Under the pieces are notes generated by a model that saw only the letters and a list, made by a program, of their open reading frames with translations, did no database searches and had not been told where the DNA came from. From Vicinamibacteria bacterium (GTDB lineage: Bacteria; Acidobacteriota; Vicinamibacteria; Fen-336), in assembly GCA_041481445.1 (NCBI GenBank), contig JBGPBV010000016.1, forward strand, positions 12,432-76,431: a stretch of 64,000 nt of DNA, given 5' to 3'. Shown here piece after piece: positions 2,855 to 16,300 of this stretch (positions within the stretch are counted from its first letter, which is position 1; each line of letters starts with the position of its first letter). A program made the position numbers and the translations under genes.

Positions 2855-3823
2855 ATGCCCTCGCCGCTCGCCGCTCCCACCCCTGTCCCGCTCGGCCCTC
2901 GACGGGCCGGCGCGGCGGCCGTCATCGCGTTGTCGTTCCTTCTCACCCCTTCCGCTCGGGCCGGCGTCTGGCAGGCGAGCGGGTCCCTCGTCGACCTCTC
3001 GGTCGAAGTCGAGGGATCCGCGGCGCCGCTCTATCCGGCACGCGACGGCTCCGGCCGCTACTACCTCGAGGCCCGCAGCGGCTCCGCGTACACCGTCCGC
3101 GTGGCCAACCGGAGCTCCCGGCGCCTCGGCGTCCTGCTCGCCGTCGACGGGCTCAACGCGATCAGCGGCGAGCGTGAGCCCGGTCCGACCGCGGCCGGCC
3201 GGCCGGGCCGCATGTACGTCATCGATCCCTGGGACGAGGTGAGGGTGCGCGGCTGGCGCACGTCGCTCGAGGACGTGAGGCAGTTCACGTTCGTGGACGA
3301 GCGGGCGTCGTACGCGACCCGGAGCGGACGCGCGAACGGGAAGATGGGCTGGATCGAGGCCTGGGTCTATCGCGAGCGCTTCGGCCCGCGGGTCTCGCGC
3401 GGCGGGACGGAGCCATGGGACCGCGGGTCGCGGCCGGAGGACCAGGCGGAGGAGCGCCCGCGGCGCGACATCCCCCCGCCCGACGCCGCCGGCACCCTCC
3501 CCGGCGCCGCTCCAGAAGGCGCGGCTCCCCCCGCCAGCGCGCCCCCGGCCGACGCCGACGCGTCCAGGGAGCGCGCCGAAGGCCTCCGCAAGGCGCAGCC
3601 CTCCGAAGAGTCGTACCCCGGCACCGGCTGGGGCAGCCGCGCCTGGGACCCCGCGACGGTGGTGAGCTTCGTGGCCGAGGCCCGCCCCTCCGACGGCGTG
3701 ACCATCCGCTACGAGTACGCGCCCGCGCTCCGCGCCCTCGGCCTGATCCCGCCGCCGTGGCATCGCGACCGCCTGGCCGAGCGCGAGCGCGGCGAGGGAT
3801 TCGCGCGGCCGCCCGCCTGGTGA
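2855..3823 (+). CDS. secreted hypothetical protein with a Pro/Ala/acidic low-complexity linker
   Basis: N-terminal signal peptide (AAAVIALSFLLTPSARAGV). Coding-like composition. No recognisable family. Confidence 0.55.
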   Translation: MPSPLAAPTPVPLGPRRAGAAAVIALSFLLTPSARAGVWQASGSLVDLSVEVEGSAAPLYPARDGSGRYYLEARSGSAYTVRVANRSSRRLGVLLAVDGLNAISGEREPGPTAAGRPGRMYVIDPWDEVRVRGWRTSLEDVRQFTFVDERASYATRSGRANGKMGWIEAWVYRERFGPRVSRGGTEPWDRGSRPEDQAEERPRRDIPPPDAAGTLPGAAPEGAAPPASAPPADADASRERAEGLRKAQPSEESYPGTGWGSRAWDPATVVSFVAEARPSDGVTIRYEYAPALRALGLIPPPWHRDRLAERERGEGFARPPAW

Positions 3824-3856: not shown

Positions 3857-5641
3857 TCAGCGGCCGCCGGCCACGAGCAGCGTCTCCGCCAGCTCGAACA
3901 CGTCGGCCGGCCAGAACGTCCTCGGGCGCGGGTGGTGCGCGAACCCCGCCACGGGATGGCAGCTCAGGACCATCGAGCGCCATTGCGCCGGTATCCCCGC
4001 GCGTCCATGGAGGGCGCCGAGCAGCGCCCCCGCGATGGCGGCGTTGGTGTCGGTGTCGCCGCCGCGGAGGACGGTCGCGGCCAGGCCCTCCTCCACCGTC
4101 CGCGCCCGCAGCGCTTCGTGGAACGCGTTCTGCAGCGCGATGAGGACCCAGCCCTGCTGCGGGCCGTCGGCGGGCCGGGCGGCCCCCGCCGCCGCCTCCA
4201 GCGCCTCCCGCACCGCGGGGACCGCGGGCGCGCCTCGCGCCCAGTCCAGGGCGGCCCGATACGCGCCCTCCGCCCCGTCGCCGCGGTCGATCGCGTGCGC
4301 GATCGCGACCACGAACGCGGCCGTGGCGTCGCCGCACACGGGATGGGGATGGGTGAGCGCGGCGTCGGCGCGGCCCAGCTCCGCGGCCCCCCGCGCCTCC
4401 AGGCGGTGGGCGAGCACGCCGAGCGGGCTCGCGCGCATCAAGGAGCCGTTGGCCTGGCTGTCGCGGCGGGGCGCGCCTTCCAGGGCGGCGCGGACCGTGG
4501 TGCCGACGTCGAAGGGCGCGGAATCCAGCCACCGGCGGTAGGCGTCGAAGGCGCGCGCGGGGTCGTAGCCGCCGCCGTCGACGATCGTGCGCGCCAGCGC
4601 CAGCGCCATCTCGCCGTCGTCGGTGGGCTGGCCGGCCAGGAGGTGCCACCGGCCGCCGTCGACGAGCTGGCGCGGACCGTCCGGGTAGAGGCGCCGGACC
4701 TCGTCCGCGGAGGCGAACTCCACGAGCGCACCCAGGTTGTCACCCGCGATCTGCCCGAGCAGGCAGCCCTGCGCCCGCGCCAGCCGCTCCGCGTCCGCGA
4801 TCGCCACTCCCGGGCGAAGGCGGGCCGGGCGCTCGGCGCCCCAGGGGCCGGCGGACACGTTCCACGGCCGCGCGGCCAGGGCCTGGCTCACCTCGAGCGA
4901 CCCCGCGAACGCGCGGGCGGAGCGGCTGTCGCCGCCGCCGTCGTAGATCATCGGCCGGCCGCTCTCGTCCACCACGGCGCCGCCCGCCGCCCGGACCATG
5001 GCGTCACCCCCCCCGTAGTCCCAGGCGCAGGGCGCGAACAGGGCGCTGGCCGCCGCCCCCTCCCCGCTCGCCACCAGGGCCAGCCGGTGGGCGATCGAGG
5101 GCACGCTGCGGTAGCGCGCGGGGGCCACGTTGCGGAGGTTGCCGCCGGGATCGCGCTCGCCGTTGCTGGAGACGAGCACGATCTGCGCGCGGTCGAGCCG
5201 GGCGGGCGGTGACGCCTCGGCGGCGCGGCCGTTGCGCTGGAGCGGCCCCCGGCCCTCCGCCCATGCGAAGAGGTCGCCGCGGTCGTCCGGATAGCCGAAC
5301 GCGAACACGACGCCGAGGACGGGCTGGCCCTCGCGCGCGAGCCCGATCGAGACCGCGCTCCCGCGCCGGCCGGCCAGGTAGTCGCGCGTGCCGTCGTTGG
5401 GATCCACGAGCCAGATGGGCTGGCCGGGCTGGCCGGCCTGGACGCCCGTCTCCTCGCCGCGATAGCCCCAGCCCGGGAAGGCCTGGAGGAGGCGCGCGCG
5501 GACCTCGCGCTCCGCCTCCGTGTCCGCCTCCGCCTTGTCGCCCCCCCCGCGCGCCCCGTCCGGGCGGTGGAAATCCGCGCGCAGGATCTCGCCCGCGCGG
5601 AGCGCCGCCTCCATCGCGACCGAGAGGGCGCGCTCGAGCAT
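3857..5641 (-). CDS. fusion protein: inositol-monophosphatase-family (IMPase/CysQ/FBPase-like) domain plus ADP-ribosylglycohydrolase (DraG/ARH) domain
   Basis: The true start is MLERAL at 5641; the upstream part of ORF 3857..6124 is artefact. IMPase motifs: WLVDPNDGTRDY and WDYGGG. ARH motifs: GCLLGQIAGDNLGALVEF, GQPTDDGEMALALA, GGDTDTNAAIAGALLGA. Confidence 0.75.
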   Translation of the reverse strand: MLERALSVAMEAALRAGEILRADFHRPDGARGGGDKAEADTEAEREVRARLLQAFPGWGYRGEETGVQAGQPGQPIWLVDPNDGTRDYLAGRRGSAVSIGLAREGQPVLGVVFAFGYPDDRGDLFAWAEGRGPLQRNGRAAEASPPARLDRAQIVLVSSNGERDPGGNLRNVAPARYRSVPSIAHRLALVASGEGAAASALFAPCAWDYGGGDAMVRAAGGAVVDESGRPMIYDGGGDSRSARAFAGSLEVSQALAARPWNVSAGPWGAERPARLRPGVAIADAERLARAQGCLLGQIAGDNLGALVEFASADEVRRLYPDGPRQLVDGGRWHLLAGQPTDDGEMALALARTIVDGGGYDPARAFDAYRRWLDSAPFDVGTTVRAALEGAPRRDSQANGSLMRASPLGVLAHRLEARGAAELGRADAALTHPHPVCGDATAAFVVAIAHAIDRGDGAEGAYRAALDWARGAPAVPAVREALEAAAGAARPADGPQQGWVLIALQNAFHEALRARTVEEGLAATVLRGGDTDTNAAIAGALLGALHGRAGIPAQWRSMVLSCHPVAGFAHHPRPRTFWPADVFELAETLLVAGGR

Positions 5642-5704
5642 CCGGAATTGTACCGGCGCGCGCTCGTTGACGCTCGCATGGACGCCGCGTACGCTTCTTC
5701 GATC

Positions 5705-6337
5705 ATGGCCCTGATCCAGTTCGTGGAGAACTACGACGATCTTTCGACCGACCGCGGCTTCCAGTTCAAGTTCTATTGCGACAAGTGCCGCAACGGGTAC
5801 ATGTCGGCCTTCCAGGCCTCGGTGGTGGGCACCGCGGGCAGCCTCCTCCGCGCCGCGGGCGACCTCTTCGGCGGCGTGTTCAGCCAGGCCGGCTCCAGCG
5901 CCTACGAGATCCAGCGCGCGGTGGGCGGCCAGGCCCACGACAGCGCGCTGCAGGCCGCGGTCACGGAGGTCAAGCCCAACTTCACGCAGTGCGTGCGCTG
6001 CGGGAAGTGGGTCTGCAACACCGTGTGCTGGAATGCCGACCGGGGCCTCTGCTCCAACTGCGCCCCCCAGACCGAGGAGGAGATCGCGGCCGCCCAGGCC
6101 CAGGCCCAGGTGGAGCAGATCCACTCCAAGGTGCGCGAGCGCGACCAGACGAGGGGCCTCGACCTCGACGACCAGATGGTCGCGCGCTGCCCCAAGTGCT
6201 CAGCCCAGACCGCGGGCGGGAAGTTCTGCCCCGAGTGCGGCGCCCCCCTCCACCCGCGGGACGCCTGCGCCCAGTGCGGGGCCAAGATGGCCCCGGCGGC
6301 GAAGTTCTGTCCCGAGTGCGGGGCCCGGAGGGCCTGA
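5705..6337 (+). CDS. multi-zinc-ribbon protein (Cys-rich N-domain plus C-terminal double zinc ribbon)
   Basis: ATG at 5705 (MALIQFVENYDD). N-domain cysteines: CDKC...CVRCGKWVC...CSNC. C-terminal ribbons: CPKC..FCPECGA and CAQCG..FCPECGA. Divergent from the IMPase-ARH gene with a 63-nt spacer. Confidence 0.65.
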   Translation: MALIQFVENYDDLSTDRGFQFKFYCDKCRNGYMSAFQASVVGTAGSLLRAAGDLFGGVFSQAGSSAYEIQRAVGGQAHDSALQAAVTEVKPNFTQCVRCGKWVCNTVCWNADRGLCSNCAPQTEEEIAAAQAQAQVEQIHSKVRERDQTRGLDLDDQMVARCPKCSAQTAGGKFCPECGAPLHPRDACAQCGAKMAPAAKFCPECGARRA

Positions 6338-6342
6338 GGGGC

Positions 6343-6531
6343 TCAGGCCGGGTCCGGGCGGGACACGAAGAGCGCGCAGGCGAGAACAGGCTGGGGCGGG
6401 TAGCGCTGCAGCAGCGGACAATAGATGAAGACCGACCCGCGGTCGCTCGTCACGTAGCGCGGCGGGGCCGCGCAGCGGTGGCAGAGGCTCTCCGGAAAGG
6501 GGTAAGGGTCGGGCCGGCCCTCGGGCACTAG
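6343..6531 (-). CDS. small Cys-rich protein (about 62 aa; CHRC...YCP...C)
   Basis: Only the C-terminal 62 codons of ORF 6343..6852 look coding. A GTG start overlaps the stop of 6528..6944. Sequence: PEGRPDPYPFPESLCHRCAAPPRYVTSDRGSVFIYCPLLQRY. Confidence 0.3.
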   Translation of the reverse strand, partial: LVPEGRPDPYPFPESLCHRCAAPPRYVTSDRGSVFIYCPLLQRYPPQPVLACALFVSRPDPA

Positions 6532-6944
6532 ACGGGTCGGCGCGGAGGGGTCAGCTCGGAGCGCCGATGGTCGCGCCGCTCCAGGATCTCGGCCGCGCAA
6601 CGCAGCGCGCCCGCGTCCTCCTCCTGCAGCCCGTAGGCCCGGCCGATCGCGTCCACTTCGTTCTGGTCCGGCGTGGGGGCGCTGCCGCCGGGCGTCTCCT
6701 CGCCCACGTACTCGTTGGCCAGGAAACGGTCGTCGGGATCGCCGACGCGGATCGTCTCGCCGGCGCGTGGGATCTCCGCCCGGCGGCTCGCGCGGGCCGC
6801 CCGCGGCAGCACTCCGGTGCGCAAGGCCTCGGCCGCCACCGCGGTCGCGCAACTCGTGTACCGCCCGTTCACTTCGTCGAGGGGAGGCAGCCGGAGGGTT
6901 CCCGGCCGGTCGTCACGCGATTTCCGCCTCGTGCGTACCGCCAT
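6528..6944 (-). CDS. hypothetical acidic protein (138 aa)
   Basis: ORF with coding-like composition (EYVGEETPGG...DQNEVDAIGRAYGLQEEDAGAL). Its TAG stop overlaps the GTG of the next small ORF (TAGTG). Confidence 0.4.
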   Translation of the reverse strand: MAVRTRRKSRDDRPGTLRLPPLDEVNGRYTSCATAVAAEALRTGVLPRAARASRRAEIPRAGETIRVGDPDDRFLANEYVGEETPGGSAPTPDQNEVDAIGRAYGLQEEDAGALRCAAEILERRDHRRSELTPPRRPV

Positions 6945-7008
6945 CGTCGATCCCGGTCATACCCTGCTCCTCCAACACGTCGCTGGTCAAGGATTTTCTT
7001 TGCCCCCG

Positions 7009-7425
7009 TCACGATGCGGCATCCACCTGGAAGGCACGATCCGCCACCACGCGGCCGTCGATGAGGATCTCGACCCGGTACTGCCCCGGAGCCCATCCCG
7101 CCGGGTTGAACACGTGGAACTCGCTCACGGTGGTGCCGTCGGGCGCGATCTTCTGTGCCGTCTCCTCGAGCAGCGCGCCCTGGTAGGTCCATCGCGCGGA
7201 CATCACCGCCCGCCGCGCCTCGCCGTCCGTGACCACCGACGCGAAGATGACGTCCCCGGGCGCGAACGTGCCGGCGGGCGCGGTGACGCGCTTGTCCGCG
7301 CCCACCGCCCGTCCGACCTCGACGTCGACGACCTTGAGCTCGGCGTTGGGCGGGAAGGCCGAGCGCGGCACGGAGCAGCCGCTCGAGGCGAGGACGGCGA
7401 CGGCGAGGAGGGGGACGGGGCGCAT
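7009..7425 (-). CDS. lipoprotein (hypothetical)
   Basis: Signal peptide and lipobox (MRPVPLLAVAVLASSGC). An alternative start is at 7452. Confidence 0.6.
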   Translation of the reverse strand: MRPVPLLAVAVLASSGCSVPRSAFPPNAELKVVDVEVGRAVGADKRVTAPAGTFAPGDVIFASVVTDGEARRAVMSARWTYQGALLEETAQKIAPDGTTVSEFHVFNPAGWAPGQYRVEILIDGRVVADRAFQVDAAS

Positions 7426-9340: not shown

Positions 9341-11131
9341 ATGTCCGCTCCCCGGATGCGCTTTCGCCTGAAGGGGCAGGTCGACGACCTGCCCCGCACG
9401 TTCCTGCTGTTCGCGGACGGAGAGACGCGGGTCGGCAGCGCGCCCACCAACGACGTCGTCCTGCCGCAGGCCGGGGTGTCCCGCCGGCACGCCGTCCTCC
9501 GGGCCTGCGAGGGGGGCTTCGAGGTCACCGACCTCGAGAGCAAGAACGGCGTCCACGTCAACGGCGTGCGCACCGCCTCCGCGGTCCTGGCCGCCGGCGA
9601 CGAGGTACGCTTCGGATCCGTCTCGCTGGTCCTCGATCCGATCGACGAGGCCGACGTCGAGCTGGCGCTCGCCCTCGACGGTCGGGTCCCGGCGGCGCGG
9701 GCGCGTGAAGCGGCGGAGCGCGCCACCGAGACGTGGGCGGGCGCGGAGCCTGTGGACGCGCTCGCGGTCGTCGAGCACCTGCTGGGCCGGTTGCGCGGCG
9801 GTCCCGCCGCCCTGGGGGATGCGCTCACCCGCCTCGTCGAAGAGGCCGGCCTGCAGGGCTGCTGCATCGCCGAGGTCCAGGAAGGCTCGCCGGTCGTGGT
9901 CGCGGCCGCGGGCACGCTACAGGCGGTGGACGAGACGCGAGTGCTCGCCGCCGTGCAGGGCGCGGAGGGGCCGGACGCGACTTCCGGCGTGCTGGCCGGC
10001 GCTCCCGACCTCGTGTGGTCCGCGATGCCCGGCCATCCGCCCCGCGTCGCCCTCGCCTGGGGCGGTCGCCGCGCGGCTTCCCTGGAGCCGGTCCTCCGCA
10101 TCCTGGTGCAGGCCGCGGCCTGGCCGGAGGCGGCGCCCCGACGCAGACACGCGGCGCCGGAGCCTCCGCGCCCGCTCGTGTTCCCCACCCACTACGTCCG
10201 CGGGACGTCGCGTCCCATGATGGCGCTGTACGCCCTCATGGAGCCCATCGCCAACACCGGCCTGCCCGTCCTCCTCATCGGCGAGACGGGGGCGGGCAAG
10301 GAGGACGTGGCGCGCGCCCTGCACTTGTCGTCGGCGCGCGTGGGCGGCCCCTTCGTCCCCGTGAACTGCGCGGCCATCCCGTCCGAGCTCCTCGAGGCGG
10401 AGCTGTTCGGCGTCGGCAAGGGCGCGGCCACGGGGGTGGCGCCGCGGACGGGGCGCTTCCAGGCCGCCCACGGCGGTACGCTGTTCCTGGACGAGATCGG
10501 CGAGCTCGGCCTCCCCCTCCAGGCCAAGCTGCTGCGCGCGCTGGAGAGCGGCGAGGTGGAGCCGCTGGCCGCCGCCCCCGTGCGCGTCGACCTGCGCATC
10601 GTGGCCGCCACCAACGTCGACGTCGCGACGCGCATCGAGGCCGGCCAGTTCCGTGCCGACCTCTACTATCGCCTGAGCGGAGCCGTCCTGCGGATCCCAC
10701 CCCTGCGCGAGCGGCGGGGGGACATCCCCACCCTGATCGACGGGATCCTCCGCCCGCTCGCGGTCGCCTCCGGCAAGCCCGTCCGAGGCGTGACCGCCAA
10801 GGCCCTGGTCGCCCTCGTCGACTACGACTGGCCCGGCAACGTCCGCGAGCTGGTGCACGAGATGCACCGCCTGTTCCACGGCTGCCCGGCCGGGGAGGCC
10901 GTGGAATTCGGCATGCTCCGCGACGATATCCGGGCGGGACCCCGCGCCGCGCGGAGAGCGCCGGACGGAGGCTCCCTGGAGCTGCAGCCCCAGGTCGACG
11001 CCCTCGAGGGCCGCCTCATCCAGGAGGCGCTCGCGCGGAGCGGCGGCAACCGGACGGAGGCCGCGAAGCTGCTGGGCATCTCGCGCAACGGCCTCGCTCT
11101 CAAGATCACGCGGCTCGGGCTCGACGCCTGA
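9341..11131 (+). CDS. FHA-domain sigma-54-dependent transcriptional activator (bacterial enhancer-binding protein)
   Basis: N-terminal FHA domain (GSAPTNDVVL...VSRRHAVL...SKNGVHVNG). Central AAA+ sigma-54 interaction domain (GETGAGKE Walker A, GAFTGA-like GKGAATGV, DEIGEL). C-terminal Fis-type HTH. Confidence 0.85.
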   Translation: MSAPRMRFRLKGQVDDLPRTFLLFADGETRVGSAPTNDVVLPQAGVSRRHAVLRACEGGFEVTDLESKNGVHVNGVRTASAVLAAGDEVRFGSVSLVLDPIDEADVELALALDGRVPAARAREAAERATETWAGAEPVDALAVVEHLLGRLRGGPAALGDALTRLVEEAGLQGCCIAEVQEGSPVVVAAAGTLQAVDETRVLAAVQGAEGPDATSGVLAGAPDLVWSAMPGHPPRVALAWGGRRAASLEPVLRILVQAAAWPEAAPRRRHAAPEPPRPLVFPTHYVRGTSRPMMALYALMEPIANTGLPVLLIGETGAGKEDVARALHLSSARVGGPFVPVNCAAIPSELLEAELFGVGKGAATGVAPRTGRFQAAHGGTLFLDEIGELGLPLQAKLLRALESGEVEPLAAAPVRVDLRIVAATNVDVATRIEAGQFRADLYYRLSGAVLRIPPLRERRGDIPTLIDGILRPLAVASGKPVRGVTAKALVALVDYDWPGNVRELVHEMHRLFHGCPAGEAVEFGMLRDDIRAGPRAARRAPDGGSLELQPQVDALEGRLIQEALARSGGNRTEAAKLLGISRNGLALKITRLGLDA

Positions 11132-11144
11132 AGGCGGGCCGCGT

Positions 11145-13277
11145 TCAGCGGCCGCGACTGCTCCGGCGGCTACGGTCGTGCGTCCAGCGCCAGGACGATC
11201 GGATCAGCTCGTCGCGTACCTCCATCACGCCGCGGCGCGCCGGGAGCGGCGCGGCCACGGCCCCGATGAGCGGGAAGAGGGCATCCCGGATCGCCGCCGG
11301 CAGCACCTGGTCGAGATATTCGAGGGCGGTCCCCCGCAAGGCCGCGTCGTGGCCGCGTACGGCGCGGCGCGCGATGTCGATCGGCTCTCCCTCCCGGGCC
11401 AGGGCCAGGATCGTGAAGACGTGGTCGAGCCGGATCGGGTCCGCGTGCCCTCCGAGCTCCTCCATCTCACGCTGCGCCGCCGCGAACGCCCGATCCGCGG
11501 GGACGGCCAGCCCCGCGCGCTGGCGTAGCCGGAGGAGGGCCGCCCCCGAGCGGTAGCGCACGTCGAAACGCTCGCATTCCAGGCCGGCGAGCAGGCCGTC
11601 GGCGGCGCGCCGGGTCGGAGCGGAGGCCAGCACGCGCGCGGCGCGCCGGCGGATCACGGGGTCCACCGCGGGGTCGAGCAACGCATCCACGAGCTGGCCG
11701 GTGAACCGGGACGCGGCCGGCCGCAAGGCGGGGACCACGTCCTTGAAGAGGTCGTCCCGCCGCAGCAGAGGCAGGGCGGCGGCGACGGCGGTCGCGTCCG
11801 AGAGGCCGAGCGCGAGGGCGGCGCGGATCCGGACGGGATCGCTCGAGCGCAGGTCGGCCACCTGACTCCCTTTCGGCTCCTCCTCCGCCGCCGCCGCCGG
11901 CACCGTCTCCTCCCGTCCGGCCTCTTCGCGCCCGGCGCTCTCCACCGCCCGCTGGGTCGTGGAATCCACGACCTCCTCCTGCTCGAGCCGGACCACGCCG
12001 CGGCGGAGGCTCTCCACCAGGGCCGTCACGTACGCGCGGTGGAAGCGCCACGTGACGGCCAGCATGGCCAGGGCCGCCGCCGTCGCCAGCAGGGCCAGCG
12101 CCCGGCCCACATGAGGACCGGCCACGACGAGGGCGAGGGCAGTGGCTCCGCTCCCCGCGAGCGTGCCCAGGCGGTCGGCGCCGACGTCGATCCAGGGCTT
12201 GGCCGGCCGCTTGAGGGTGTGGGGCAGGGGCGTGTAGAGCAGCTCGTAGGAAGAGCGGAACGTGGAATTCCTCAGGACGGCCTCCGCACCGCGGAGCAGG
12301 ACCATGACGTTCATGCGCGGGATCACGCTGGCCACGCCCGCGAGGAGGGCCACGACCAGTGGATGCGTGGCCAGCGTGCCGGCCAGGCCGAGCCGCGTGA
12401 GCGATCGCCTCACCAGGGAGGCCTGCACGATCAGCCCGGCCAACCCGGTGAAGGTGTGGAAGGCCGCGAAGAACCCGGCCAACGCCTGGCCTTGGGCAAA
12501 CCGGCCGGCGGCGGCCGCGTTGAACGCGTAGTCCAGGAGCGCCTCCACGAACGCGCAGAGCACCATCAGCGCGGCCAGGGCGCGCAGGTAGGGATCCCGG
12601 GCGAGCCAGGCGAGCGACGGCTCGGACCGCGCCGGCTCCGCGTCCACGCGCGGCGACGGCCCCGGCCGCCCGGCGGCGGGCCGGCTCCGCCCGATCCCGC
12701 GCAGCGCCAGCGCGCACAGCACGAGCAGGCCCGCGAGACCGAGGAGCAGCGTGGGCACGCGGACCAGACGGGACGCGCGCCAGGTCAGGGCCCCCCCGAG
12801 GACGCCGCCCACGCTGGCCCCCGCCCCGATCGTGCCCATGGCCTTCCGGGCCGCGTGCGGGTCGAAGCTCTCGTTGATCAGGGACCAGTACCCGGAGACC
12901 AGAGTGGCCCCGAACGTGGCCACGTGCAGGTAGACGAGGGCGGCCGCCGCCCGCGGCGCGCCCAGGCTCAGCGCCCACTCCAGGGCCAGGAGAAAGGCGC
13001 TCGACCAGAGCATCATGCGCACCACTGCCCCGGGATGGCGGCGGGCGGTGACACGCGACAGCGCGGCCACTGCGATCAGGGAGATCGCGGCGCCGGCGGC
13101 CAGGGCCAGCGGCAGCGTCGTGACCGGGAACTCCGAGAGGAAGAACGCGTCGCGGACGACCTTGGCCGCCACCTGCTGGCCGACCAGGAGCCCCGCGCCC
13201 AGGGCGGCGCGCAGGGCGGTGACCGGACCCGTTTCGGGGCTCGATCCGCCCTCGGCGGCGTCGGCTTCACTGCTCAT
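11145..13277 (-). CDS. polytopic membrane transporter (MFS / ATP:ADP-antiporter-like) fused to C-terminal HEAT/PBS-lyase repeat domain
   Basis: 710 aa. About 12 predicted TM helices in the N-terminal 450 aa. C-terminal repeated D-x-VR-x-AA-x-AL HEAT-like repeats. The transporter-family assignment is from memory and low-confidence. Confidence 0.65.
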   Translation of the reverse strand: MSSEADAAEGGSSPETGPVTALRAALGAGLLVGQQVAAKVVRDAFFLSEFPVTTLPLALAAGAAISLIAVAALSRVTARRHPGAVVRMMLWSSAFLLALEWALSLGAPRAAAALVYLHVATFGATLVSGYWSLINESFDPHAARKAMGTIGAGASVGGVLGGALTWRASRLVRVPTLLLGLAGLLVLCALALRGIGRSRPAAGRPGPSPRVDAEPARSEPSLAWLARDPYLRALAALMVLCAFVEALLDYAFNAAAAGRFAQGQALAGFFAAFHTFTGLAGLIVQASLVRRSLTRLGLAGTLATHPLVVALLAGVASVIPRMNVMVLLRGAEAVLRNSTFRSSYELLYTPLPHTLKRPAKPWIDVGADRLGTLAGSGATALALVVAGPHVGRALALLATAAALAMLAVTWRFHRAYVTALVESLRRGVVRLEQEEVVDSTTQRAVESAGREEAGREETVPAAAAEEEPKGSQVADLRSSDPVRIRAALALGLSDATAVAAALPLLRRDDLFKDVVPALRPAASRFTGQLVDALLDPAVDPVIRRRAARVLASAPTRRAADGLLAGLECERFDVRYRSGAALLRLRQRAGLAVPADRAFAAAQREMEELGGHADPIRLDHVFTILALAREGEPIDIARRAVRGHDAALRGTALEYLDQVLPAAIRDALFPLIGAVAAPLPARRGVMEVRDELIRSSWRWTHDRSRRSSRGR

Positions 13278-13379
13278 GCGCTCCCGTTCCGCGGTACGAT
13301 CAGGCTGCCAAGATCAGCGCATCGTACGCCCGCCGGCCTCCTCGGCCACGGCCCGCGGGCCAGCGTGGGAGCGGGAGCC

Positions 13380-16300
13380 ATGCCCTCCACGGATCCCGAA
13401 TCGTTCGCGGGGACCGAACGATTCGCCGTCCAGCGCCGCCTGGGTGCGGGGTCGTTCGGCGTCGTCTACGAGGCCTTCGACCGCCAGCGGAACACGCGCG
13501 TCGCGCTCAAGACCCTGCGCGTGGGCACGGGCCGCACCCTCTATCGTTTCAAGCAGGAGTTCCGGGCCCTGACCGACGTGTCTCATCCGAACCTGGTGAC
13601 CCTCTACGAGCTGCTGGCGGAGGGTGACCAGTGGTTCTTCACGATGGAGCACATCGACGGCGTGACCTTCCTGCAGCACGTGCGGGGCAGCGAGGGCGGG
13701 ACCTTCTCGAGCGGGTTCTCGTCCCCCACCACCCCGGCGCTGGAGGCGCTGCTCCGGCCGCGCGGGTCGCCGGGATCCTCCGCGTCCACGGCGGGGTCCT
13801 CGGAATCGACTCCGGACGACGAGCCCGAGCCGCCGCCCGACCGGGTGCCCGATCCGCGGCCGGCGCTGCCGCCGATTCCAGCCGGGATGTCGGGCGCGGT
13901 CTTCACCGACCGCCTTCGCGCCGCCCTCGCCCAGCTCGCGGAGGGCGTCGGGGCCCTGCACTCCGCGGGCAAGCTCCACCGCGACATCAAGCCCTCGAAC
14001 GTGCTCGTCACCGGGGCCGGGCGGGTGGTGCTGCTCGATTTCGGCCTCATCCGCGAGCTGCGACCGGACGTCACCTACACCGTCGAGACCGCGGGCACCC
14101 CCGCCTACATGTCGCCCGAGCAGGCGGCGGAGCGCCCGCTGAGCGAGTCCAGCGACTGGTACAGCGTGGGGGTCATGCTGTACGAGGCGCTCACCGGAAA
14201 CCTTCCGTTCACGGGGGCCACCCTGCAGGTCCTCCGCCGCAAGCAGCTCGACGAGCCACCGCCGCCCTCCACCGTGGTCCCGGACGTCCCCGAGGACCTC
14301 GACGTCCTGTGCCAGGGTCTCTTGCGCCGCGCGCCCGGGCAGCGGCCGTCCGGGGCGGAGGTGCTCCGGCGGCTCCGCCGCGATGCCGTCGCCGCCGAGG
14401 TCACGTCGCCGCCGCCCCTCTCCGCGCCCTCCGCGGGAGTTCCCTTCGTCGGCCGGACGGGCGAGCTCGCGCGGCTCCACGAGGCCTACGCCGTCCTGCG
14501 CAGCGGACGCGCCATCACCGTGACCGTGCACGGCGGATCCGGCATGGGCAAGACGGCCCTGGTCCGGTCGTTCCTCGACGAGGTGCGCGGGCAGAGTCCG
14601 CCGCCGGTGATCCTCTCCGGCCGCTGCTACGAGCGCGAATCGGTCCCCTACAAGGCCTTCGACAGCGTCGTGGACGCGCTGAGCCAGCACCTGCGCCGCC
14701 TCTCGCCGGCCACCGTCGAGGCCCTCCTGCCCCACGACCTGTCGGCGCTGGTGCGCCTGTTCCCGGTGCTGCGACAGGTGCGCGGAGTAGGCACGCAGCG
14801 GCCCCCGCCGGAGATCCCGGACTCCTACGAGCGGCGCCGGCGGGCCTTCGCCGCCTTGCGCGAGCTGTTCGTGCGGCTGGCCGATCGCTACCCGGTCGTG
14901 GTCGTGATGGACGACCTGCATTGGGGCGACGTGGACAGCGCGGCCCTGCTCACCGGGCTCATGGAGCCGCCGGACGCGCCGGCCGTGCTGATCATCGGGT
15001 GCTATCGGACGGAAGAGGCCACGACCAGCCCCCTGTTGTCCGTGCTCCTTCCCCTGCGCGACCTCCCGGCGGCGGCCCCCCTCGTGAAGATGGACATCCC
15101 GCTCGGGGAGCTGGGACCGGAGGAGGCGCGCGCGCTGGCCCGCGAGCTGCTCGGGCACCGTCCCCAGGCCACCGATCGCACGGAGGCGATCGTCCGCGAA
15201 GCACAGGGGAACCCGTTCCTGGTGGACGCCCTGTCCCGATTCTCGGCCGACGAGACCTCGGGCCTGGCCGTCGACGAGTTGATCTGGCGCCGCGTCCGCG
15301 AGATGCCCGAAGCCGCGCGGCGGCTCCTGGCCGTGGTGGCCACGGCCGGCCGGCCGATCGAGCTCGGGGTGGCCGTGCAGGCGGCCGGTCTCGAGGGCGA
15401 GGGCGACGCCGCGCTGGCCGCCCTGCGCTCCGTCCACTTCGTCCGCACCCGCCGGAGCTCGGCCTGGGAAGAGGTCGAGCCCTATCACGACCGCATCCGG
15501 TCCGCCGTCACCGCCGGCCTGCCCCCGGACGAGACGCGCCACGTCCACGAGCGGCTCGCCACCGCGCTCCTCGCCTCCCGTCGGGCGGATCCCGAGCGGC
15601 TGGCCGAGCACTTCCGGGAGGCCGGACACCTCGAGGAGGCCGCCGACTACGCGGCCGCCGCCGCCGACGCTGCCGCGGAAGCGCTCGCCTTCGAGCGCGC
15701 GGCCCGCCTGTATCGGCTGTCGCTGAACCTGGTCGCGCATCCCCGGCCCCAGGACCAGCGGCTGCGGGTCCTTCTCGGCCACGCCCTCGCCAATGCGGGG
15801 CGCGGCCGCGAGTCCGCCGAGGCCTACCTGGCGGCGGTGGCGGGCGTGACCGACGCCTCCGAGCGGATCGATCTCCAGAGGCGGGCGGCCCAGCAGCTCC
15901 TCATGGCGGGGCATGTCGAGGCCGGGGACCGCCTGGTCGGCACCGTCCTGGACGCCGTGGGCATCTCCCGGCCCCGCACCACGCGCCAGGCCCTGGTCTC
16001 GCTGGTCCTGCGCCGCGCCTTCCTCTTCGTGCGTTGCTTCCCGCGCGCGTGGTTCCGCGAGCGCGAGGAGGCGCGGGTCCCCGCCCGCGACCTCCTCCGC
16101 ATCGACACCTGCTGGTCGATGGCGGTCGGCTTGGGGCTCATCGACATGATCCGGGCCGCGGAGTTCCACGCGCGCAGCCTGCAGCTCGCCCTGCGGGCGG
16201 GCGAGCCGTACCGCGTCGCCCGCGGGCTGGCCCTGGAGGCGGTGTTCGTGGGCGTGGGCGGGACGAGGACCCGCCATCGCGTGGATCGCCTGCTCGGCGA

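Follow-up and report, generated by a model that had tools for sequence, protein, structure and literature searches.

Why would a bacterium join an enzyme that removes ADP-ribose (ADPr) from macromolecules to a phosphatase in one polypeptide? The question is raised by a gene in a stretch of 64,000 nucleotides from a Vicinamibacteria bacterium (contig JBGPBV010000016.1; hereafter, the window), which is predicted to encode a bifunctional protein with an inositol monophosphatase (IMPase)-family domain followed by a DraG-like ADP-ribosylglycohydrolase (ARG) domain of the ADP-ribosylhydrolase (ARH) fold. What is known of bacterial erasers of ADP-ribosylation comes mainly from enzymes paired with a transferase encoded alongside, as in DraT/DraG, DarT/DarG and Tre1/Tri1. 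The family to which the window protein belongs is a large, conserved set of "orphan" erasers joined to a phosphatase; its members are spread over 10 or more phyla, at least 80 species genomes and 133 protein clusters. We propose, with a rough probability of 0.55, that the ARG half would free ADPr from a modified macromolecule and that the IMPase half would dephosphorylate an ADPr-derived product, the substrates of both being predicted from sequence comparison.

Two domains in one reading frame

The fusion gene (Table 1) is read through 594 codons with zero internal stops, in a window of high-GC DNA (65–77%). The longest open reading frame (ORF) in this frame extends to position 6124, and the ATG at 5641 agrees with the starts of the homologues. 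A protein identical to the fusion is present on two independent contigs, one in NCBI and one in the Logan assembly of SRR29604914; these independent assemblies, together with hundreds of in-frame homologues, rule out a frameshift or an assembly artefact. A reading of the DNA made from its letters alone (the sequence-only reading) had claimed a single 594-residue polypeptide combining both enzymes, and this claim is borne out by the uninterrupted ORF, by two Pfam domains over cut-off and by complete sets of motifs for both active sites. Profile searches, a check that the same reading had suggested, place Inositol_P and ADP_ribosyl_GH far over their Pfam cut-offs. In one Acidobacteriota metagenome-assembled genome (MAG; L054, 8001–9786), the codon-usage caller gave no full-length fusion ORF, just a C-terminal fragment of 70 residues, and this homologue may represent a frameshift, a pseudogene or an assembly error.

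The N-terminal half matches Pfam Inositol_P (PF00459) over residues 2–233 with an E-value of 2.6e-31 (109.6 bits vs a cut-off of 27), and covers profile positions 2–245 of 271 with a shortened C-terminus. Its metal- and phosphate-binding motifs are kept, namely D40, E63-E64, D80-P-x-D83-G-T85 and W207-D208, and the two stretches by which the sequence-only reading had recognised the phosphatase, WLVDPNDGTRDY (residues 77–88) and WDYGGG (residues 207–212), are both found in the translation. The nearest solved structures are those of SuhB/IMPase enzymes (E ~1e-14, ~25–28% identity), on which Foldseek places this half with template modelling (TM) scores, normalised to the target, of 0.73–0.82 in the PDB. 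Specifically, the domain lies below all NCBIfam equivalog cut-offs: SuhB/IMPase NF008027 (40.7 vs 332), HisN TIGR02067 (67.3 vs 275), CysQ TIGR01331 (67.3 vs 229), CysQ NF008182 (45.3 vs 379) and FBPase/IMPase NF009321 (26.4 vs 264). Two further PDB entries, 3t0j and 5i3s, which we take to be S. aureus IMPase/NADP phosphatase, match at E ~3e-6, vs 1e-14 for SuhB, and no specific sequence affinity to NADP phosphatases is seen in the structure-database comparison.

The C-terminal half matches Pfam ADP_ribosyl_GH (PF03747) over residues 292–552 with an E-value of 1.9e-58 (198.9 bits vs a cut-off of 26.2), spanning profile positions 1–286 of 287. It aligns full-length, residue by residue, with Rhodospirillum rubrum DraG (2woc/2woe) and keeps the ARH motifs GDxLG (D301), T340-D341-D342, D378, N398-G-x-x-M-R403, T430-H431 and D529-x-D531-T532; of these, D378 corresponds to D97 of DraG, which is the mutated position in PDB 2woe. 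In the AlphaFold model this half adopts an all-helical ARH fold, with TM-scores normalised to the target of 0.87 on DraG 2woc and 0.87 on 2cwc. It, too, stays below the equivalog cut-offs of its best-known relatives, scoring 128 vs 337 for DraG (TIGR02662) and 66.6 vs 490 for Tri1 (NF041672).

When the window protein was aligned with 89 full-length representatives of the fusion, mutually at most 50% identical (n = 90), D40, E63, E64, D80, D83, T85 and D208 of the IMPase half proved to be conserved in 84–88 sequences each and W207 in 55. Every ARH motif residue is conserved in 81–90 of the 90, with the metal ligands (T340-D341-D342 and D529/D531/T532), the catalytic Asp (D378) and the Thr-His (TH) pair (T430-H431) each found in 81–86. 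Among these diverse representatives, the median identity to the window protein is 46% in the IMPase half, 50% in the ARG half and 24.5% in the connector. The retention of the catalytic residues in 81–90 of 90 sequences (55 for W207), together with the identities of the two halves, therefore indicates that both domains are under purifying selection. Judged by these motifs, both active sites are predicted to be complete, the first an IMPase-type Mg2+/phosphate site and the second a DraG-type binuclear-metal/TH site.

The AlphaFold2 model, built on 99 homologues, has a mean predicted local distance difference test (pLDDT) score of 95.5 and a predicted TM-score of 0.94. Per-block pLDDT stays at or above 90 along the connector, save for residues ~261–270, where it drops to 76. 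The connector holds an RPW element that is conserved within Vicinamibacteria-type sequences, and an L..RA element is conserved at the start of the ARG domain. As modelled, the fusion protein is one compact, rigid two-domain body. Foldseek found no solved PDB chain spanning both halves, the top query-normalised TM-score being 0.44.

Spread of the fusion and partners of its relatives

A word-indexed protein search returned 2,685 matches, the best 120 of which are all full-length fusions at 62–78% identity, some labelled Vicinamibacteria. When one genome per species was scanned, 497 stretches coding for a relative were recovered, with nearby high-scoring segment pairs merged by the scan script; the best 80 of the 497 were retained. 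These 80 loci come from as many species genomes, and in every one the match covers both domains, from query residues ~1–50 to 566–594. By record title they fall into Acidobacteriota (~37), Planctomycetota (11), Chloroflexota (8), Gemmatimonadota (6), Myxococcota (5), Burkholderiales (4) and Eremiobacterota/Xenobia (3), and also include UBP9, Armatimonadota, Schekmanbacteria and Thermodesulfobacteriota, so that the 80 loci spread over at least 10 phyla. The genome closest to the window is an Acidobacteria MAG (L004) with 74% identity. In phage genomes no fusion was found, just partial ARG-only or IMPase-only matches of at most 36% identity.

A library clustered at 50% identity yielded 732 proteins at E <= 1e-30. 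The best 150 of the 732 clusters comprise 133 with the order IMPase to ARG, two with the reverse order ARG to IMPase (P0223, P0224) and 15 with ARG only. The 133 clusters in one order and two in the other among these best 150 show that coupling of the domains is under selection, and a functional link between the two activities is very likely. The survey of architectures that the sequence-only reading had called for thus shows how far the fusion is spread. That reading had also allowed that the fusion might prove common and already characterised: common it is (80 species genomes; 133 of the 150 clusters), and automated annotation at JGI and NCBI gives such proteins both domain names or the label "inositol monophosphatase family protein", but no paper was found that describes the fusion or names both domains together. 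The fusion is therefore a common enzyme family for which no published characterisation was found.

Relatives carry further domains. An extra NUDIX domain is found at the N-terminus of P0122 and at the C-terminus of P0124, P0125 and P0177; SIR2_2 is added in P0127 and P0138, ARPP-1 in P0166 and DUF6508 in P0137. Two proteins of ~1,000 residues from Pirellulaceae/Anammoximicrobium have the arrangement ARG-IMPase-ARG (L045, 199–3234; L047, 6831–9830). Sister ARG domains, 49–54% identical to the window ARG half, are combined with other partners, namely DSP-PTPase (P0266, P0238), microbial PARG (P0267) and DUF6508 (P0240), and the DSP-PTPase has a further match in Pfam, to the family described as "DSP-PTPase phosphatase fused to NAD+ Kinase". 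In L042, a separate ARPP-1 gene (6343–7335) lies ~650 nt upstream of the fusion.

Four cultured Proteobacteria bear the full fusion on plasmids or chromids at 42–49% identity. In Rhodobacter sp. CZR27, a NUDIX hydrolase gene begins 8 nt downstream of the fusion, and genes for a WYL protein, a recombinase and a RecB-like nuclease are close by. In Pseudomonas luteola, the fusion comes after a WYL protein, and its surroundings encode another WYL protein as well as an HD protein, a RecB-like nuclease and a restriction endonuclease; in Azospirillum ramasamyi the fusion is flanked by a restriction endonuclease and an RNase-H-like gene; the record of the fourth copy, from Azospirillum brasilense, is unannotated over the fusion stretch. 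The hypothetical genes flanking the plasmid copies show no homology to each other or to the fetched loci, a set that took in the first 16 kb of the window. Taken together, the two domain orders, the NUDIX, SIR2, ARPP-1 and second-ARG additions, the DSP-PTPase swaps and the plasmid contexts tie the domains to each other and to NAD+/ADPr metabolism.

These observations bear on whether the fusion could be an uncoupled one, in which an ordinary metabolic phosphatase of the IMPase, HisN or CysQ type was joined by chance to a DraG-like regulator-eraser and the halves have no pathway in common. The IMPase half does look generic, with SuhB/IMPase as its best matches, and the window lineage has no conserved operon beyond synteny. 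However, the pairing is found in both orders and in 10 or more phyla; in sister ARGs the IMPase gives way to a phosphatase of unrelated fold; NUDIX, SIR2 or ARPP-1 has been joined on repeatedly; and the IMPase half scores below every characterised equivalog cut-off. We consider an uncoupled fusion extremely improbable.

Some relatives of each half stand alone. The ARG relatives P0258 (L084) and P0252 (L086/L087) are 52–54% identical to the C-terminal half of the window protein. P0258 adjoins a PPDK_N/Rph-like (rifampin-phosphotransferase-type) gene with a TetR-type regulator, and from this locus alone the ARG clade might be linked to rifamycin modification; P0252 adjoins HEPN_Swt1/DUF499 and AAA_14/DUF4143 genes in a defence-island-like setting. 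In L027, a separate ARG-family gene fragment (5977–6711) lies upstream of the fusion. Stand-alone IMPase genes, ~40–44% identical to the N-terminal half, are found on Pseudomonas megaplasmids (L090, Pseudomonas sp. XWY-1 plasmid pXWY, 6998–7786; similar in H19–H23) amid insertion sequence elements, an integrase and an MbcA/ParS/Xre-family antitoxin gene, with no adjacent ARG gene. The MbcA/ParS/Xre antitoxin family partners NAD+-consuming and ADP-ribosylating toxins.

Predicted order of reactions

Free ADPr contains a pyrophosphate diester only and no phosphomonoester, and an IMPase-type enzyme therefore cannot act on the immediate product of the ARG half. The sequence-only reading had imagined that one polypeptide processes both the ADP-ribosylated substrate and the phospho-sugar released from it; the idea of processing within one polypeptide stands, whereas direct action of the phosphatase on the released product does not. 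The substrate of the phosphatase would therefore come from Nudix cleavage of ADPr to AMP and ribose-5-phosphate, or would carry a phosphate that is already on the ADPr scaffold.

We propose that the DraG-like half would hydrolyse the glycosidic bond between ADPr and a macromolecule, by which ADPr is freed; because of the closeness of this half to DraG, arginine-linked protein ADPr would be its most likely substrate. The IMPase half would then hydrolyse a phosphomonoester on an ADPr-derived molecule, most likely ribose-5-phosphate or AMP, and the Nudix enzyme needed to split ADPr would be encoded elsewhere in the genome of the window. This route fits the NUDIX domains that are fused or adjacent in relatives. 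Alternatively, the phosphatase may remove the 2'-phosphate of NADP-derived ADPr or the phosphate of ADPr-1''-phosphate. In either case, dephosphorylation would clear the released nucleotide and thereby pull the reversal reaction forward. The role of the protein would be to undo ADP-ribosylation carried out by a non-adjacent enzyme, for example a transferase from a phage or a competitor, or one of the cell's own that is encoded far away.

A different order of events is conceivable, in which the IMPase half acts on the conjugate itself, removing the 2'-phosphate of NADP-derived 2'-phospho-ADP-ribosyl groups or the 5'-phosphate of phosphoribosyl remnants on proteins or nucleic acids, and so letting the ARG half cleave the glycosidic bond. 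We regard this order as very doubtful. If true, it would imply that bacteria have a new, phosphorylated form of ADP-ribosyl modification, together with an enzyme dedicated to erasing it in two steps; this eraser would be common among soil phyla and would occur in the culturable Azospirillum, Rhodobacter and Pseudomonas luteola. The presence of the fusion in cultured, tractable Azospirillum, Rhodobacter sp. CZR27 and Pseudomonas luteola makes the role of the phosphatase testable with one recombinant protein.

Both halves might also work on small molecules, as a nucleotide enzyme that detoxifies or recycles soluble phosphorylated ADPr derivatives; candidates are 2'-phospho-ADPr or 2'-phospho-cyclic ADPr from NADP, ADPr-1''-phosphate and the O-acyl-ADPr of sirtuins. 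Such a role would suit the solitary, housekeeping-like context of the window copy, the existence of SIR2_2 and NUDIX fusions, and the match of the sister-ARG DSP-PTPase to a family fused to NAD+ kinase, and it has precedents in IMPase-family NADP(H) phosphatases. It is at odds with an ARG half that keeps all DraG residues and is closest to protein-Arg-ADPr hydrolases, and no NAD-salvage genes were seen among the neighbours examined. Moreover, Iyer, Burroughs, Anantharaman and Aravind (Viruses 2022;14:1977; PMC9503650) argued from phyletic patterns that ARG domains prefer macromolecular conjugates. A purely small-molecule enzyme therefore seems improbable to us.

Setting of the window copy and comparison with known systems

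Table 1. Features in and around the fusion gene (positions in the window)
Feature	Coordinates	Strand	Description
Fusion gene	3857..5641	(-)	Predicted bifunctional IMPase-family phosphatase / DraG-like ADP-ribosylglycohydrolase, 594 aa; stop codon 3857-3859
IMPase-fold domain (residues ~1-235)	4937..5641	(-)	Pfam Inositol_P, structure matches, conserved motifs
Inter-domain connector (residues ~236-285)	4787..4936	(-)	Mostly ordered, from pLDDT and alignments
ARH/DraG-fold domain (residues ~286-594)	3860..4786	(-)	Pfam ADP_ribosyl_GH, DraG alignment, Foldseek
Divergent intergenic spacer	5642..5704	.	63 nt; sequence read directly
Zinc-ribbon protein	5705..6337	(+)	210 aa; seven CxxC pairs; Pfam DZR (6e-10), Zn_Ribbon_1, weak Prok-RING_2
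Cys-rich protein	6343..6528	(-)	61 aa; no Pfam family; motif CHRC...RGSVFIYCPLL..YP.QP
DUF6335 protein	6528..6944	(-)	138 aa; Pfam DUF6335, 9.6e-17; heads the DUF6335 / 61-aa / fusion string
Predicted secreted protein	2855..3823	(+)	322 aa; no Pfam or PADLOC match; apparent N-terminal signal sequence; convergent with the fusion, 33-nt gap

The sequence-only reading had stressed the absence of an ADP-ribosyltransferase and taken the divergent zinc-ribbon gene for a partner of the fusion. The first point holds: no ADP-ribosyltransferase, sirtuin, Nudix or macro domain is found among the 16 called neighbours with precomputed Pfam hits, although six small Pfam-less neighbours could be novel transferases. 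The 64 kb of the window contain no homologue of the NUDIX, SIR2, PTP, ARPP, PARG or DUF6508 segments of the relatives and no second IMPase/ARH copy. In line with that reading, the fusion is not part of a classic toxin-immunity pair, as no ADP-ribosyltransferase is nearby.

The zinc-ribbon gene fares otherwise. Its 63-nt spacer from the fusion is as had been described. In a profile search, however, it stands beside the fusion in 2 of 81 non-redundant loci, namely the window (with a duplicate, L001) and the 74%-identical L004 (7277–7906), which rules it out as a functional partner. It seems to have been inserted, in this lineage only, between the fusion and the 61-aa gene. It was missed by the codon-usage caller trained on neighbouring genes, perhaps a sign of atypical codon usage, and PADLOC gives it no match. 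Between positions 3600 and 7100, no sigma-70-like promoter or intrinsic terminator was found, a scan that is uninformative in DNA of 72–77% GC.

The genes that usually adjoin the fusion in Vicinamibacteria-type genomes lie upstream on its own strand. The DUF6335 gene precedes the fusion in the same direction in 22 hit rows (21 distinct loci), Acidobacteriota only, and the 61-aa gene in 19 hit rows (18 distinct loci without the duplicate L001), usually 24–100 nt from the fusion start. In ~20 Acidobacteriota genomes the two make up a conserved string directly ahead of the fusion on its strand, the loci with the pair, besides the window, including L003, L008, L010, L012, L013, L015, L018, L019, L021–L023, L025, L054, L071 and L072; in some loci the DUF6335 gene alone is directly upstream. 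From this arrangement, co-transcription of the pair with the fusion is possible. Downstream, the 322-aa gene converges on the fusion in 16 hit rows (15 distinct loci), again in Acidobacteriota only, and this linkage is probably synteny alone. All three associations are confined to Acidobacteriota and could reflect no more than synteny. Farther out (9341–15998), translations read by eye suggest an FHA-plus-sigma-54-activator-type regulator (9341–11131, +), a 710-aa membrane/HEAT-like protein (11145–13277, -) and an 878-aa Ser/Thr-kinase-like protein (13365–15998).

Is the fusion, then, a dedicated counter-defence or conflict enzyme that reverses the ADP-ribosylation of the host's proteins or nucleic acids by toxins of phages or competitors, with the window copy as its minimal form? 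Such a role overlaps with the model proposed above and would account for several relatives. Around the plasmid copies are WYL regulators, nucleases of the restriction-fold and RecB-like kinds, mobilisation genes and a recombinase; ARPP-1 is fused in P0166 and adjacent in L042; the ARG-only P0252 lies beside HEPN_Swt1/DUF499 and AAA_14 genes; and the published ARG-centric prediction describes this very arrangement (PMC9503650). In contrast, the chromosomal gene order around the fusion, made up of non-defence genes, is stable in the window and ~20 related Acidobacteriota loci, the window encodes no regulator or effector and PADLOC is silent there, the sequence is highly conserved, and no phage genome carries the fusion. 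We therefore hold dedication to conflict to be a tentative, on balance unlikely, alternative. Alone on the chromosome and without plasmid-type regulators or nucleases, the window copy is probably a constitutively available repair or surveillance enzyme, and this stripped-down chromosomal form may serve housekeeping rather than defence.

Returning to the proposed release of ADPr followed by dephosphorylation, with undoing of a non-adjacent transferase's work as its role, we note the observations that weigh against it. First, no neighbour supports it across phyla. At loci of 47–56% identity, where genes were called by a self-trained codon-usage model and neighbours scanned against Pfam, no family recurs across phyla; the maximum is 4 of 86 immediate neighbours (YbjN-family proteins account for 3 of the 86), and among the second and third neighbours the top family, a cupredoxin pair with 8 of 111, is apparently confined to a Gemmatimonadales synteny block. 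A cross-phylum conserved neighbour is thus ruled out in these 86 and 111 neighbours, which show lineage-specific synteny alone, and because no neighbour family recurs, the gene is solitary in most genomes, that of the window included. Second, the window copy lacks accessory genes, with no Nudix, WYL, chaperone or nuclease gene nearby, and PADLOC finds no defence-system match in the window region. Third, the IMPase half is closer to generic SuhB/IMPase than to known NADP phosphatases. Finally, neighbourhoods vary across phyla, yet within Vicinamibacteria the protein is 62–78% identical and syntenic; this high conservation and synteny differ from the rapid evolution expected of conflict systems, which Iyer et al. 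list as a hallmark (PMC9503650).

How does the fusion compare with enzymes already known? SuhB/IMPase is the best match of the N-terminal half and shares its metal-binding motifs; the window domain differs in scoring far below the NF008027 cut-off, in its shortened C-terminus and in being joined to an ARG domain. DraG (R. rubrum 2woc/2woe; A. brasilense 3g9d) is the best match of the C-terminal half (E 3.5e-26, with the TM-score of 0.87 given above), and all catalytic motifs align, including D97 with D378. DraG is a stand-alone protein of ~295 residues without a phosphatase domain. The window protein also differs from it in remaining below the TIGR02662 cut-off, and no DraT, nitrogenase/nif or PII homologue was noted among the window neighbours with precomputed Pfam hits. 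Tri1 (6dre), the immunity protein to the Tre1 toxin, shares the ARH fold and reverses the Arg-ADP-ribosylation caused by the toxin; it has no phosphatase domain, and the window protein lies below the Tri1 cut-off (NF041672) and has no toxin gene adjacent.

A precedent for the phosphatase half comes from NAD metabolism. IMPase and CysQ enzymes with NADP(H) 2'-phosphatase activity are documented (PMC8553519; PMC10622864), and in MJ0917 of Methanocaldococcus jannaschii an IMPase-like NADP phosphatase is fused to NAD kinase (PMC8553519). As in the window protein, an IMPase-fold domain is thus fused to a partner from NAD metabolism, and MJ0917 sets a precedent for removal of a 2'-phosphate on an adenosine-diphosphate-ribose scaffold. 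The partner is a kinase there and an ARG domain here.

The closest counterpart of the family is a set of predicted systems. Iyer et al. described "ARG-centric" systems, in which an ARG without a linked transferase has a coupled phosphatase in slightly more than 55% of neighbourhoods (PMC9503650, section 3.8). The phosphatases listed are rhodanese-phosphatase, calcineurin-like, HD and HAD, and the accessories include Nudix-HTH or WYL regulators (~42% of systems), chaperones, restriction-fold nucleases and ARPP. These systems, themselves a computational prediction, were proposed to counter viral ADP-ribosylation, with the ADPr released by the ARG processed by the phosphatase together with Nudix (section 3.8). 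The window fusion likewise has an ARG without a linked transferase or sirtuin (none among the neighbours with Pfam hits, and no SIR2 homologue in the 64 kb) and a phosphatase, here in the same polypeptide; its relatives carry or adjoin NUDIX, WYL, HD, restriction-fold and RecB-like nucleases and ARPP-1, and sister ARGs carry DSP-PTPase. It differs in that its phosphatase is of the IMPase family, which is absent from the list, neither "inositol monophosphatase" nor "IMPase" occurring in the text of PMC9503650; in that the window copy has no Nudix-HTH or WYL regulator, chaperone, nuclease effector or ARPP; and in its stable chromosomal synteny. Because the accessory repertoire of the relatives is the ARG-centric repertoire, the family belongs to this kind. 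By its domains and contexts, we propose that it is best filed as an IMPase-bearing, often solitary variant of the predicted ARG-plus-phosphatase systems, a theme already predicted in broader form (PMC9503650) that would hereby gain a fifth phosphatase fold.

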